From the IMG/VR virus record IMGVR_UViG_2639763115_000001, positions 1 through 12,696 of that record: a stretch of 12,696 nucleotides of DNA; one strand, given 5' to 3'. Position numbers and translations under genes: made by a program. The first letter of the stretch is position 1. Every line of letters starts with the position of its first letter. Source of the DNA: a virus (taxonomy: Duplodnaviria > Heunggongvirae > Uroviricota > Caudoviricetes). This document shows, in pieces, positions 3,820-7,538 of this stretch. The notes beneath the pieces were generated by a model that was given only the letters and a program-made list of their open reading frames with translations, ran no database searches and had not been told where the DNA came from.

Positions 3820-4395
3820 ATGCCTAATCGCATTCCTCTCGATCCTGTATTGCCCAAAAATTTTGACTGCACTCCTAACGAGAAACGCTCTAAAGCTCAG
3901 CTGGACGCCTGGTGGGATCATCCGTATGGAGTTACACAATCTGACGGGAAAATTGTTGTTTTTTGTCTAAACGGTGGCGCGTGGGACCGTCCATCCATGC
4001 TTTGTTTGGCAGATAACTATGATGACGCCTGTGAACTTGCAGAAAGAAAGCAGGCAAGCTGGGTAAAAACACGGTCTAAACCGTCATTCATGTTTTCAAT
4101 AGAACCGCCATTTATCCTAGCAAGGATGCCGCAGCGACCAGACCAGGAACAGCAAGAGATTGTTGCCGAATTTGATTCAAGGGAAGAAATGAACCTCTTC
4201 ACGATGAAACAGGAACAAGAAGAGAATCTTGGAGTTTCACCATTTTTGGATCACAAGAGTATGAACCTCGACCTGCTTATCTGGTACAGCAATGAGCTTG
4301 AGTTATCGCTGTCCCGGCTTGAAAAAGAAAAAGCAGCTATCCAGGCACAACGTGAAGCTGTGTTGGCGCGGATTAAAGAAGTACAGAACGGATGA
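3820..4395 (+). CDS. Hypothetical protein (191 aa) with C-terminal coiled-coil, divergent from humD across the LexA box; possibly the lxr (LexA-regulated) position of P1
   Basis: ATG at 3820 with AAGGA SD. The lxr assignment is positional only, not sequence-based. Confidence 0.6.
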   Translation: MPNRIPLDPVLPKNFDCTPNEKRSKAQLDAWWDHPYGVTQSDGKIVVFCLNGGAWDRPSMLCLADNYDDACELAERKQASWVKTRSKPSFMFSIEPPFILARMPQRPDQEQQEIVAEFDSREEMNLFTMKQEQEENLGVSPFLDHKSMNLDLLIWYSNELELSLSRLEKEKAAIQAQREAVLARIKEVQNG

Positions 4396-4401
4396 TTGCT
4401 G

Positions 4402-4653
4402 TTATTTTTTGATGGTATCGTCTTTTTGGTATACCGGATCGCTTCCCTTTGGCAACTGGAGGCTTAACTGCCGGTAGTGCCGTAGACGTTCCATGAAATA
4501 GGTGCGCAGGTTCTCTGGTTGCTCGCGGGCTACCTGTTCAGCTATGACAGGTATGTTCAATCGCTCTTTGTAGGCAACCCCCCTAGCAGCCAGGTCAACG
4601 TTAACTTTATTCCTTTCTTCCTGGCTTTTAGCTGCTATGTTCCATTCGTTCAT
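4402..4653 (-). CDS. hot: Homolog of DNA polymerase III theta subunit (HolE-like), 83 aa
   Basis: [42 protein letters not shown] aligns with E. coli theta ([42 protein letters not shown]). Second in-frame ATG chosen, giving the 83-aa length I recall for P1 Hot; the track ORF starts 4 codons earlier (4665). Confidence 0.85.
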
Positions 4654-5121
4654 ATTAAATCCCATCCAGAATAATTGAATAACGGCTATTATTTAGTCGC
4701 CGCAATATCTTCAAAGTTTTTTTCTCACCCCATTGCTTTTTGCGCACAGCTTATCTGGCTTGCGGTGCGCCGAAATGTAAATTCGCCTTCAGAGTTATCC
4801 ACAAAGTTATGCACTTGCAACGAGGCCATTTTCCTCATACTGTGTTTGCACACACAGGAAATGGATATTTTATTAATTGAATTTTATTAAATAATAATGA
4901 TAAGGAGAAAATTTGAGATGTAATCATGACATTAATAGATAGGGCCTGCATTACAGGCCCCAACTACATCAAGGAATTCACAGTTCCCTGATTTTTATAC
5001 CGAAAACATGTGCCGTAAGTTCACGTTAACGACTTTCTTTCACCGAATCCAACTATATAGAGGTTGGGTTTCTACGTCAACGTGAGAGCACACAGCTTTA
5101 CATTTGACGAGGATTACCCTG

Positions 5122-5259
5122 ATGATTGTAATTTTTCAGTTTCTAAGTGCATTTTTAAATGCGCCTGTTCTTAGCCAAGTGCTGGCGATTGTCTTCATCG
5201 TGGTTCTGATATGGTTTTTCAAGTCAGTGATAAACAGAGGCGTGCGCTGGCTTATTTAA
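5122..5259 (+). CDS. Small hydrophobic protein (45 aa, MIVIFQFLSAFLNAPVLSQVLAIVFIVVLIWFFKSVINRGVRWLI); one predicted transmembrane helix, basic C-terminus
   Basis: Not in the ORF track. ATG at 5122 with GAGGA SD 8 nt upstream. Only plus-strand gene in an AT-rich intergenic island. Confidence 0.3.
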   Translation: MIVIFQFLSAFLNAPVLSQVLAIVFIVVLIWFFKSVINRGVRWLI

Positions 5260-5442
5260 TGTCGCGCTGAGATATTAATTCCCTTGCTGTTTAACCATTT
5301 TTTGTGTGTGCTGGTGAGCGTGTGAAGGCTCAATTTGTTGCCCACCAGTATTTACTATTTCTAAGCTCCACAGTGTCACTTCCGCACAAACAACTTAGCG
5401 CGGAATCAGTATTCGGCCCAAGATGTAAAAAGCCAACCTGCG

Positions 5443-5709
5443 TTATGGTTCGCATTTCCAAATAGTGTTCTGAACGCCCGTGCCGGGCGCGAGATGTGGA
5501 TTAGCGTTCGCGCTATGCTGATATACGGCTTTAGACTTTCCATATTGCTGACAGGCTTTATCTGCGGTTTTTTGCAGGCTATCCAGCCCATACCAGCCAT
5601 CAGACTGGATGCTTACCTTTTCACCGTCATTGTATTGCACCATTGCACACCCGGACATAGCCAGCATCGCACCGACAATAACGCTTTTCCATAAAACTCT
5701 ATGCAACAT
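5443..5709 (-). CDS. Putative small lipoprotein (88 aa from ATG; signal peptide with lipobox-like AMSGC)
   Basis: N-terminus MLHRVLWKSVIVGAMLAMSGC has a basic n-region, hydrophobic core and Cys. Track ORF starts on TTG two codons upstream. SD-like GAGGGGA lies inside the upstream terminator stem. Confidence 0.45.
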   Translation of the reverse strand: MLHRVLWKSVIVGAMLAMSGCAMVQYNDGEKVSIQSDGWYGLDSLQKTADKACQQYGKSKAVYQHSANANPHLAPGTGVQNTIWKCEP

Positions 5710-5713
5710 ATAC

Positions 5714-5745
5714 AAAAATCCCCTCTGTGAATTGAGGGGATTTTA
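5714..5745. terminator. Rho-independent terminator hairpin (TCCCCTC / GAGGGGA, 8-nt loop) with A-tract and T-tract flanks
   Basis: Read directly. Lies 34 nt downstream of the stop of the 249-aa minus-strand gene; the T-run follows the stem on the minus strand. Confidence 0.6.
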
Positions 5746-5778
5746 GCATGGTGATCAGATATCAGCTTTATCAGGAAT

Positions 5779-6528
5779 TTAATCAGCCTCCAGTGGCAAT
5801 AACGCCTTAGCCATTTCATGAACCAACATGGCATCAATGACGCCTAGCGTATGGCCCGGCTTAATCTTTAATGCGGCCTCAAGATAGCCTCTTTCCAGAG
5901 TGGTTTTTACGCTTTTCCTGGGCGCCTGTTGGGAACTATCCGGAAGATCCGGATGGTTCCCAGCCTCATAAGCTATCCGCAACCAGTGCATGAATGTTTC
6001 CGCAGACACACAACCGCAGTCCACATCGATTTTCCCGCGTTGCTGTTCCAGCCATTGCCCAAAATCCAACCTGTAAGCCTTACTTTCAAGTTCATCGCCA
6101 TTGAACTCGACTTTCTGCGACGCTATGAGAGCTGATTCGTATTGTTCGCGAGTGACAACTGACTGGTATTCATCGCTATCAAGATCACCAATTGGAAGCT
6201 CAATCTCACAACAAAAATTGCGCCCAAAGAACGTGTCTTTTTTGTGGTCTGAGCCAAAAGCAAAAGTCGCGCATGGCGCCATTAAATTGGCACTGAGCAG
6301 GCGACAATCGATCATACCATCAGGCCACCCGCCGCACTTAGGCAGCTCCTTCACTAACAAGTCGATAAGCTTCATTTTTTTATCATCTTTGCTAGTTGCT
6401 AACGCCATTTTTGCAAGTCCAAATACTTCATCTGCCGTATATCCAGCACCGTGACCATACATTTCGATACGGGAAATAATCTCTGATATACGCTCTTTAG
6501 TGATTCTGGTCATTTCTTTTTGCGCCAT
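5779..6528 (-). CDS. Hypothetical protein (249 aa)
   Basis: Long ORF. The ATG at 6528 has an AAGGA SD about 12 nt upstream; an alternative ATG at 6513 forms an ATGA start/stop overlap with the upstream gene. Confidence 0.7.
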   Translation of the reverse strand: MAQKEMTRITKERISEIISRIEMYGHGAGYTADEVFGLAKMALATSKDDKKMKLIDLLVKELPKCGGWPDGMIDCRLLSANLMAPCATFAFGSDHKKDTFFGRNFCCEIELPIGDLDSDEYQSVVTREQYESALIASQKVEFNGDELESKAYRLDFGQWLEQQRGKIDVDCGCVSAETFMHWLRIAYEAGNHPDLPDSSQQAPRKSVKTTLERGYLEAALKIKPGHTLGVIDAMLVHEMAKALLPLEAD

Positions 6529-6884
6529 TTCTTTTCACATTCCTTAGTCCATTTTTCAATGTTCATTTTGGCAATATCAGTCATTCCATCGCCTAAGAAA
6601 TACCTTTCCCGGTATGTCTTGCACTTAAACCACACTACAATAGCCACCAGCCAGAAAATAAAAGGCCAGACAGCAATACCAACTACAGCCACGATAAAGT
6701 CCAATAGACACAAATGAAGCTCCCCTACTTCTGTTTCAGGCAATATCTTTAAAGAGTTAAACAGCAGACTGAACGAATGGTCGTATGCAGTAGCGCTATA
6801 AGACATACAATCCATATAATTAAAATCATAGCCTGCGGCTGCCGCCCATAATGGGCAGTCAAGAAAATGTTTGAATGTCATCAT
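6510..6884 (-). CDS. Hypothetical membrane protein (124 aa), one long hydrophobic segment and a Lys-rich C-terminus
   Basis: ATG-ATG start at 6884 with no clear SD. Hydrophobic stretch FIVAVVGIAVWPFIFWLVAIVVWF. Confidence 0.5.
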   Translation of the reverse strand: MMTFKHFLDCPLWAAAAGYDFNYMDCMSYSATAYDHSFSLLFNSLKILPETEVGELHLCLLDFIVAVVGIAVWPFIFWLVAIVVWFKCKTYRERYFLGDGMTDIAKMNIEKWTKECEKKWRKKK

Positions 6885-6950
6885 ATAAATTTAATCAGTT
6901 ACACAGTGTGGCTGCTTCCCTGCCGTAACAGCAGGGTAATAAAGTTATAA

Positions 6951-7115
6951 TCAGTCTCCAGATAGAGATATAGCTAACGCACCAACGAGGAATAAGGTGC
7001 TACCAGCCAATGCACCGCAGCTCTCCGTTCCCCATTCAACGCCACCAGCCAAAGCCACAAAAAAACCACAAACACAGACAAATATAAACGTCGCCCAAAA
7101 CTGTTTCTTTTTCAT
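6951..7115 (-). CDS. Small membrane protein (54 aa, MKKKQFWATFIFVCVCGFFVALAGGVEWGTESCGALAGSTLFLVGALAISLSGD)
   Basis: Not in the ORF track. ATG at 7115 shares a base with the stop of the upstream gene (TAATG). GGAG 9 nt upstream. Two hydrophobic segments. Confidence 0.35.
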   Translation of the reverse strand: MKKKQFWATFIFVCVCGFFVALAGGVEWGTESCGALAGSTLFLVGALAISLSGD

Positions 7116-7408
7116 TATGGGGTGCTCCAGTTATCTTCAATTACAATGCTCAACCTTTGTAGCCATTCTGCTAATTTCAGCATTGCTTCTCTTTCGCTTA
7201 AACCACGCGGGAAATCATCAAGCGATATTGTTGGCTTGAAGTTCCCGAAATTATCCATTTCAACTGTCAGATTTTGCTCTAACACGGTATTCCTGACACG
7301 GCTATTGTGCCGAAGCAAATATACTGATCGTGATTCATTAGTTTTGTGGTCGAATTGATATTCGGTAAGTATCATCTGGCTTTTGCCATGACTATTACCT
7401 CTCCACAT
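7115..7408 (-). CDS. Hypothetical protein (97 aa from the internal ATG)
   Basis: ATG at 7408 with GAGG SD 7 nt upstream. The track ORF (7115-7495) extends further upstream across a small overlapping ORF, so the longer start is less likely. Confidence 0.5.
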   Translation of the reverse strand: MWRGNSHGKSQMILTEYQFDHKTNESRSVYLLRHNSRVRNTVLEQNLTVEMDNFGNFKPTISLDDFPRGLSEREAMLKLAEWLQRLSIVIEDNWSTP

Positions 7409-7415
7409 ACTTACC

Positions 7416-7538
7416 TCACTTAATAAAACAACTCCATGCGTAGTTGATGATTTTTTCCCACGCAATATAAATCTGCACTCCAGCAGTAAAACCAAAGCCT
7501 ACAATTGCTGAAAAAATCAAAACATTTACTTTTGACAT
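7416..7538 (-). CDS. Small hydrophobic peptide (40 aa, MSKVNVLIFSAIVGFGFTAGVQIYIAWEKIINYAWSCFIK)
   Basis: Not in the ORF track. Weak SD. Stop lies 8 nt before the ATG of the downstream 97-aa gene. Confidence 0.25.
   Translation of the reverse strand: MSKVNVLIFSAIVGFGFTAGVQIYIAWEKIINYAWSCFIK

Follow-up and report, generated by a model that had tools for sequence, protein, structure and literature searches.

The DNA analysed here is a viral stretch of 12,696 nucleotides (IMG/VR record IMGVR_UViG_2639763115_000001, Caudoviricetes), below called the window. Segments identical to the whole 12.7 kb occur in several Enterobacteriaceae plasmids, and the window is ~95% identical to P1, P7 and SJ46 over most of its length. 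By this resemblance the window is a P1-like phage-plasmid, with the gene order c1, doc, phd, humD, lxr, hot, a gap and hypothetical genes. We are concerned with the gap between hot and a lipoprotein gene (4654-5442) and with ORF45, an open reading frame (ORF) of 45 residues inside it. The reading that we favour, with about as much belief as doubt, is that the gap would be a conserved two-strand module in which an antisense RNA controls a small membrane protein, in a layout like that of type I toxin-antitoxin (TA) loci.

An earlier note on this DNA had described the gap as an AT-rich island without a long ORF. This is confirmed. The longest ORF has at most 71 residues, and the AT-richness is real but modest, with a G+C content of 0.404 at 4666-5442 compared with 0.465 for the window (0.36 at 4840-5100, 0.21 at 4850-4920). 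The elements that the note had placed there, i.e. the Shine-Dalgarno (SD) sequences, a start-stop, a 21-codon ORF and ORF45, all lie where it put them, Table 1. The prokaryotic genome annotation pipeline (PGAP) has no feature within 4654-5442 of an identical plasmid. No meaningful Rfam match was obtained for the whole window at the gathering threshold or for 4600-5500 at E<=10, and the window contains no tRNA or transfer-messenger RNA genes.

Table 1. Features of the gap and its borders, in window positions; promoters, RNAs and RNA structures are predictions.
Feature	Position	Strand	Remarks
hot	coding region ends 4653/4665	-	PF06440, homologue of DNA polymerase III (Pol III) theta; left neighbour of the gap
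Counterpart of P1 late promoter LPhot (former LPr91), drives hot	4688-4711	-	aligned to annotated P1 features (L001 3376-3399); function predicted
Segment homologous to nrdA upstream region (ypaB/nrdA promoter)	4719-4833	+	~78% identity, 5423 E. coli chromosomes
Tandem DnaA boxes TTATCCACA and TTATGCACT	4795-4803 and 4807-4815	+	same arrangement as at nrdA
Rightward sigma-70 promoter	4815-4843	+	-35 TTGCAA (4815-4820), 17-nt spacer, -10 TACTGT (4838-4843)
SD AGGAG and start-stop ATG-TAA	SD 4903-4907; ATG 4918-4920; TAA 4921-4923	+	form conserved in four lineages
21-codon ORF	4926-4991	+	not conserved as coding sequence
Antisense RNA, ~115 nt	4930-5044	-	loose 5' part, then two hairpins, the second as terminator
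Hairpin 3	4942-4960	-	GGGCCTG 4942-4948 pairs with CAGGCCC 4954-4960; likely intrinsic terminator
Hairpin 2	4968-4992	-	stem kept, 3 of 7 loop bases vary
Leader helix and enclosed hairpin	helix 5021-5031/5075-5085; hairpin 5045-5054/5062-5071	+	specific to the + strand
Antisense promoter	5052-5080	-	-35 TTGACG (5080-5075), 17-nt spacer, -10 TATAGT (5057-5052)
SD GAGGA and ORF45	SD 5109-5113; ATG 5122, stop 5257-5259	+	SD 8 nt before ATG; comparative coding signature
Long hairpin with T-rich tail	5304-5355	+	-18.7 kcal/mol, z=-2.4; possible 3' end of ORF45 mRNA
Lipoprotein gene, 88 residues	5443-5709	-	lipobox LAMSGC; right neighbour of the gap

Conservation of the gap

For comparison, we collected 76 copies of the module from plasmids, phage records, viral contigs, metagenomes and assemblies. 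They form four deep lineages: the window type, the P1/P7 type, a third type (L063-L068) and a fourth type (L070-L074). P1-like phage-plasmids have eight hypervariable regions (PMC9603915), and window 4313-5316, where identity to P1 drops to ~81%, belongs to one of them. According to CRISPR interference experiments the annotated genes adjoining the gap are non-essential for lytic growth of P1 (PMC10695390). Despite lying in such a hypervariable region, dispensable for lytic growth, the module is kept in all four diverged lineages. In the fourth type the resemblance to P1 is limited to hot and the module. In L070 (2503-4231) these two form a cassette inside an otherwise unrelated element, beside genes for an H-NS homologue, a TsiV-domain protein and a VRR-NUC protein, and these flanks show no resemblance to P1.

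The mean pairwise difference between the four lineages is 0.08-0.13 at 5010-5084, 0.19-0.27 at 4910-5009, and 0.4-0.5 at 4835-4909 and beyond 5210. The best-conserved block, ~4995-5085, is non-coding and comprises the antisense promoter and the first 50 nt of the RNA read from the minus strand. Least conserved are the 70 nt between hairpin 3 and the DnaA boxes, where insertions and deletions occur.

Further searches did not enlarge the set of lineages. Among genome representatives an exact 25-mer gave no match, and a peptide-pattern scan gave a single one, in Synechococcus, that looks like hydrophobic noise. A 15-mer scan of metagenomes returned mostly chance matches and four real loci, with zero new lineages. 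The result of a pattern scan of viral contigs with CAACTATATANNNGGTTGGGTTT (internal NNN) was ignored, as it had zero matches though loci there contain the pattern.

ORF45 is probably a small membrane protein

The frame of ORF45 (protein sequence MIVIFQFLSAFLNAPVLSQVLAIVFIVVLIWFFKSVINRGVRWLI) is open in all four lineages and intact in ~73 of the 76 copies, so it passes the test on which the earlier note had staked it, namely that it should not be freely interrupted by stops in related elements. Its length in the lineages is 45, 45, 45 and 42 residues; the shorter form (L070) arose by a 20-nt deletion that replaced only the tail. Taken alone, ORF45 is not beyond chance, because 81% of dinucleotide shuffles of the island contain an ORF of at least 45 residues starting with ATG, and its significance comes only from comparison. 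In codons 4-33 the minimum numbers of changes at the first, second and third codon positions are 13, 2 and 19 (binomial P=1.6e-4), i.e. second positions are avoided. The hydropathy of the core, ~2.2-2.4, is kept better than in 99.7% of the simulations with an open frame (P=0.0025), and the BLOSUM score is unremarkable against simulations. The ATG and the SD (AGG/AAGG) are conserved across the lineages.

The note's picture of a small, hydrophobic, single-helix peptide holds as regards size and a hydrophobic core kept across lineages. AlphaFold predicts a helix at residues 2-12, a break at an invariant N-A-P, and a second helix at 16-44 (predicted local distance difference test 84). Two polar residues within this helix, S18 and Q19, are also invariant. 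By sequence and model, ORF45 would thus have the properties of the small (<~60 residues), hydrophobic, membrane-targeted protein of a type I TA locus. It is probably a real small membrane protein with 33 conserved N-terminal residues and a free basic tail. In some natural copies an IS1 insertion or a frameshift alters the 3' end (L008 2050-2766; P0003-P0006), and the N-terminal 33-37 residues are always kept.

Gene callers and PGAP label homologues of ORF45 "hypothetical protein". The frame had been called unannotated, which is true of the window allele but not of the P1-type homologue (PGAP hypothetical protein WP_170988307.1). At E<=10 in Pfam, it matches only viral membrane proteins, by chance, and does not match Hok/Gef (PF01848). 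A profile hidden Markov model search of 1.84 billion representatives found only the ORF45 family and its variants truncated by IS1 or frameshift, and a word-indexed search for distant homologues likewise returned only the family itself and truncated variants.

Directly upstream of the SD, at 5094-5106, the segment CTTTACATTTGA is invariant save for one base (CATTAGA in a minority of window-type copies) between variable flanks. The consensus fold has it paired to the region of the start-stop (AUGUAA/UUACAU), with one pair broken in P1. Two candidate promoters near ORF45 (TTTACA-18-GATGAT and TTGACG-17-TGTAAT) were rejected, as neither is present as a conserved element in the other lineages. We also rejected a terminator-like hairpin at 5147-5164, which is weak (-7 kcal/mol) and lies inside the conserved coding part. 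The long hairpin after ORF45 may, as a weak suggestion, mark the 3' end of its mRNA. The third type (L063) has it with a T-A to C-G change in the stem, it is not significant in L070, and P1 is without it.

A predicted structured RNA on the opposite strand

The antisense promoter agrees with the sigma-70 consensus at 10 of 12 positions, in the window and P1 alike. Its hexamers are invariant in the four lineages, the spacer varies, and the promoter is intact in 76/76 copies. It is identical to PupfN, a predicted promoter of the P1 GenBank record. The RNA that it would produce should start near 5044 (P1 NC_005856 ~86208) and end near 4930. As a 122-nt minus-strand RNA, the region has a minimum free energy of -38.3 kcal/mol (z=-4.2), and the consensus fold of the lineages reaches -40 to -42 kcal/mol on this strand compared with -27 on the plus strand. 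Across the 39 pairs of the minus-strand RNA, 94.4% of the cells are paired. There are four compensatory pairs, against 1.1 in shuffles (3 of 500) and 0-1 in slid controls, and several pairs are G.U on the minus strand and C.A on the plus strand. The first 50 nt are the most conserved part and only weakly folded (z=0.4), as would be expected of a recognition region.

Hairpin 3 had been described in the earlier note as a 7-bp hairpin reaching about 4965; the stem is as described, but it ends at 4960. On the minus strand it has -19.5 kcal/mol (z=-4.4), and two of its pairs have changed independently with compensation (C-G to T-A in P1, G-C to A-T in L063). A third change yields G.U on the minus strand and C.A on the plus strand, and because minus-strand G.U pairs are mismatches on the other strand, hairpin 3 fits best as the terminator of the minus-strand RNA. 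It is likely to be the intrinsic terminator, followed by the conserved tail UAUCUAUUAA (UAUCUUUUAA in L063). Hairpin 2 has, in L070, G-C in place of A-U as a compensatory change, together with a shift of register. One of the pairs of hairpin 2 is G.U on the minus strand and A.C on the plus strand.

The candidate antisense RNA is perfectly complementary to the ORF45 leader from just downstream of the start-stop, which itself sits just outside the predicted 3' end. An antisense RNA covering the SD of ORF45, as the note had envisaged, is not what we find. The candidate overlaps the leader instead, at ~4930-5044, 65-190 nt upstream of that SD. Because such a candidate exists, the suggestion that ORF45 is a type I toxin or a small membrane regulator stays open.

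The leader on the plus strand

The SD and start-stop that had been noticed in the window are conserved in form across the four lineages: ATG-TAA in the window and L070, GTG-TAA after GGAGG in L063, and ATG-CAA-TCA-TGA in P1/P7. The 21-codon ORF that follows is present in the window as had been described, but it does not survive as a conserved gene. Its ATG is GTA in L063, and 6 of the 21 residues differ between window and P1, mostly by second-position changes that follow the RNA hairpins. It ends 130 nt before ORF45, and only in L070 are the two fused in frame (a 106-residue call, P0007).

In the leader helix and its enclosed hairpin 99.2% of the pair cells are paired. One pair has changed from A-U to U-A in compensation. 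There are also three changes on one side only, each from C to U facing G, that the plus strand alone tolerates. The helix 5021-5031/5075-5085 has one arm at the -35 of the antisense promoter and therefore cannot be part of the antisense RNA. The consensus fold further shows leader helices of long range and a conserved small hairpin of SD and anti-SD (AGG/CCU, variable loop), a hint of the stable, translationally restrained mRNA of type I toxins. Each strand has its own wobble-compatible pattern, in the segments predicted by a convergent pair of mRNA and antisense RNA.

A predicted promoter with homology to host nrdA

The proposal that the island holds promoters is borne out by predicted promoter sequences on both strands. 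The rightward one points away from hot and toward ORF45, and a transcript would start near 4850. It lies at the end of the segment that resembles the region upstream of E. coli nrdA, and its position is that of the mapped nrdA promoter; the homology ends within the spacer between -35 and -10. GenBank record M95666 labels the segment 'nrdA-like promoter'. With tandem DnaA boxes upstream of and overlapping the -35, and with its homology to nrdA, it has the properties of an nrdAB-type promoter. A perfect DnaA box occurs only once in the window, as TTATCCACA, which is invariant in the four lineages, and the second box is invariant save for its first base in the L063 lineage. The -35 is invariant, and the -10 reads TACTGT, TATTGT, TACTGT and TAGTGT in the lineages, i.e. 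TA..GT is kept and the middle varies. In E. coli, DnaA, Fis and IciA control nrdAB via such boxes (PMC8203912).

Over 132 columns the P7-type allele shares 89% identity with the E. coli nrdA upstream region, rising to 98% across the DnaA boxes and the -35. Over the same columns, with E. coli represented by L061, the identity is 89% for the P7 type (L007/L062), 76% for P1 and 68% for the window. Differences this large between the three alleles suggest that the segment was repeatedly exchanged with the host chromosome or converted by it. A LexA box considered at 4840-4857 was discarded, having the wrong spacing and no counterpart in P1.

Existing annotation and neighbouring regions

In the P1 records the homologous gap carries LPhot (LPr91), the ORFs upfO, upfN and upfM, of unknown function, on the strand of hot, and the predicted sigma-70 promoters PupfN and P1/P2upfM; the other strand has an "nrdA-like promoter" with a DnaA box. 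None of the three ORFs is open throughout. As stop codons interrupt all three in the window lineage, or the start is lost, they are unlikely to be genes and are ruled out as an explanation of the gap. They cover window 4689-5133 on the minus strand (P1 NC_005856 86099-86543) and look like spurious annotations, upfO being the counterpart of E. coli ypaB, a small ORF annotated antisense to the nrdA promoter region. The P1 annotation and ours concern the same DNA and share one element, PupfN, which is the antisense promoter. They differ in that the conserved ORF45 lies on the opposite strand and is missing from the P1 record. In the literature we found no paper on an RNA or a small protein at this locus.

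Window 5316-7500, to the right of the module, differs from P1 in gene content. P1 has pmgV/pmgU/pmgT there, while the window encodes the 88-residue lipoprotein and hypothetical proteins without a Pfam or PADLOC match. In a relative 99% identical to the island (L004 2633-3776), the type I restriction-modification gene hsdM directly follows the module, and to judge from such gene content the region acts as a hot spot for cargo insertion. An intrinsic terminator of the lipoprotein gene at 5410-5441 was considered and found no support from folding.

Proposed mechanism

The mechanism that we propose is as follows. A sigma-70 promoter that takes its upstream half, two DnaA boxes abutting a -35 TTGCAA, from the host nrdA promoter would fire rightward from ~4850 and give an mRNA of ~500 nt. 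Its leader of 270 nt would carry a strong SD with the start-stop (4903-4923) and the conserved helices, followed by ORF45, which would encode a short N-terminal helix and one transmembrane helix. Inside the leader a strong, constitutive-looking convergent promoter (5080-5052) would make the structured RNA of ~115 nt that ends at hairpin 4942-4960. By pairing with the leader beside the start-stop, this RNA could block ribosome loading (at the start-stop or a standby site), prevent opening of the leader, or trigger cleavage, and the convergent promoters may also interfere with each other. The peptide would then remain unexpressed, except when the DnaA-controlled promoter outpaces the antisense RNA or when that RNA is lost by decay. 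The transcript ends, the pairing mechanism, the control by DnaA, the membrane insertion and any toxicity are all things that we infer from the sequence.

A rather unlikely extension goes further: the locus would be a second RNA-controlled membrane-toxin module in P1-like plasmid prophages, with its promoter captured from nrdA. Since the mRNA promoter would be of this kind, peptide production would be gated by DnaA and replication status, and the state of host or plasmid replication (beside the phage Pol III theta homologue) would be linked to membrane damage, growth arrest or exclusion. The antisense RNA, invariant over 90 nt, would also hit a host target.

Several observations weigh against the antisense-controlled module. 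The ratio of non-synonymous to synonymous substitution rates (dN/dS) of ORF45 between window and P1 is only 0.49 (dS 0.48), compared with 0.085 (dS 0.47) for hot. A frame of its length stays open by chance in 38% of simulations, its C-terminal tail is unconserved, with IS1 and frameshift variants in existence, and it has no similarity to Pfam, PHROG, NCBIfam or PADLOC models or to toxin families. Because only four deep lineages exist, the covariation rests on a handful of events, and because the U tract after hairpin 3 is interrupted, the strength of this terminator is uncertain. Complementarity in cis is automatic for an antisense RNA, and for this reason cis pairing alone fails to explain the extreme conservation of 4995-5085. 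Finally, killing on the P1 addiction fragment was reportedly assigned to phd-doc only (Lehnherr 1993, record M95666).

Alternative explanations

The conservation of 4995-5085 is the starting point of the alternative in which the minus-strand RNA is the main product, a trans-acting small RNA (sRNA) on host or phage mRNAs, with its invariant, loose first 50 nt as the seed and with ORF45 and its leader separate or secondary. We regard it as unlikely. An external partner would explain an invariance that cis complementarity does not need, the most conserved stretch is indeed the weakly folded 5' part, and in its order of parts (5' region, A/U-rich linker, two hairpins, U-rich tail) the RNA is similar to enterobacterial sRNAs. 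However, when tested for duplexes with the nrdA leader and with hot, lxr, ORF45 and the lipoprotein gene, the RNA scored no better than shuffles and no target emerged, Rfam offers no match, and the same stretch holds a promoter and a plus-strand helix, which could account for its conservation.

Another possibility keeps the whole architecture and changes only the nature of the peptide: ORF45 would be a small membrane protein of benign function, for example one that modulates a host membrane protein or acts in exclusion, and the locus would be no addiction or abortive module. The invariant polar residues in the helix (S18, Q19) and the N-A-P break suggest a specific partner, truncated variants are rare rather than common, and the reported restriction of killing to phd-doc concerns the fragment that carries the module. 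Computation cannot tell such a protein from a toxin, but tight antisense control together with sequestered, distant ribosome loading is more typical of toxic peptides, as in tisB/istR-1 and hok/sok, and we hold a harmless ORF45 to be rather improbable.

The position of hot gives rise to a third explanation, in which the minus-strand promoter is a lysogenic sigma-70 promoter of hot or of a leftward gene, the core is its leader, the hairpin an attenuator and the DnaA boxes a roadblock, and ORF45 is incidental. Among the 60 copies with enough flank to score hot, it lies on the same strand downstream of the antisense promoter in 37. Moreover, hot and the module moved together into a non-P1 context in L070, the imperfect U tract makes read-through plausible, and the P1 GenBank record lists PupfN as the promoter of a rightward-to-hot ORF. 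Against this, the other 23 of the 60 copies (P7 type) have no hot and keep the promoter, the core and ORF45 intact, and conservation is lowest, with insertions and deletions, in the 70 nt that separate the hairpin from the DnaA boxes. As the coding signature of ORF45 and the helices specific to the plus strand are also left unexplained, we find this quite improbable.

It is very improbable that the core is a DNA element, e.g. paired protein sites CACGTT(A/G)ACG at 5022-5031 and 5076-5085, with non-functional small RNAs and ORF45: the 10-mers are inverted copies of each other, one of them shares bases with the -35 of the minus-strand promoter, and a dimeric site would also be compatible with the symmetric change TCTCG/CGAGA in L070, but the one-sided changes are all wobble-tolerated for one strand, a bias that DNA binding does not predict, hairpins 2 and 3 have conserved stems, variable loops and compensatory pairs, and the three-base periodicity of the ORF45 substitutions would be unexplained.

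Comparison with known systems

In tisB/istR-1, with its ribosome standby site, and in hok/sok, with the mok leader ORF, type I TA control acts far upstream of the SD of the toxin. The antisense-controlled module that we favour resembles both in its hydrophobic, predicted single-helix peptide of fewer than 60 residues, its long, conserved and structured 5' leader, and its location on a plasmid or prophage. The likeness extends to a small RNA from the opposite strand, here predicted, that would pair with the leader well upstream of the peptide SD, and to an initiation element in the leader (here an SD with a start-stop) beside the pairing region. It ends at the sequence level. ORF45 has no similarity to Hok/Gef, TisB, Ldr, Ibs, ShoB, ZorO or DinQ, and for this reason cannot be assigned to any known toxin family. 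The leader ORF is reduced to a start-stop, unlike mok, a coupled overlapping leader ORF, and the predicted promoter is of the nrdA type with DnaA boxes, whereas those of type I TA loci are LexA-controlled or constitutive.

With E. coli nrdAB the module shares 78-89% identity over ~115-130 bp, the tandem DnaA boxes, the -35 TTGCAA and a -10 at the equivalent distance. The relation does not extend to the -10 itself or to the regions of the start, the NrdR box and the transcript, and the promoter would drive a phage leader and a small ORF instead of ribonucleotide reductase. An Hfq-dependent trans-acting sRNA should have trans targets and a Rho-independent terminator with an uninterrupted U tail. 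The candidate RNA shows a strong predicted hairpin (-19.5 kcal/mol) followed by UAUCUAUUAA; duplex tests with the neighbouring genes and the nrdA leader gave no targets, and there is no Rfam family.

P1 and P7 already have one regulatory RNA, c4, a small RNA of the immI operon that controls the translation of downstream genes by base pairing (cited in PMC8201110). The RNA proposed here would likewise be a small, P1-encoded RNA acting by base pairing. It differs in that c4 is processed from the transcript of its own targets and acts on an mRNA of the same strand, whereas the proposed RNA would be a convergent cis-antisense RNA with its own promoter at another locus.

P1 is among the most studied phages and a workhorse of genetics, and its reference record shows three failing ORFs here and lacks the conserved ORF45 and the RNA. 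If our reading is right, a small membrane protein under RNA control would join phd-doc and the c4 RNA in the biology of P1, and the annotation of hundreds of P1-like resistance plasmids would be corrected. It would also be a clear case of a mobile element that reuses a host cell-cycle promoter, the nrdA DnaA boxes, to time a small gene. On the present comparison, the locus is best described as a putative, uncharacterised addition to the class of antisense-RNA-controlled small membrane proteins, with an unusual DnaA-box promoter that appears to be derived from the host.

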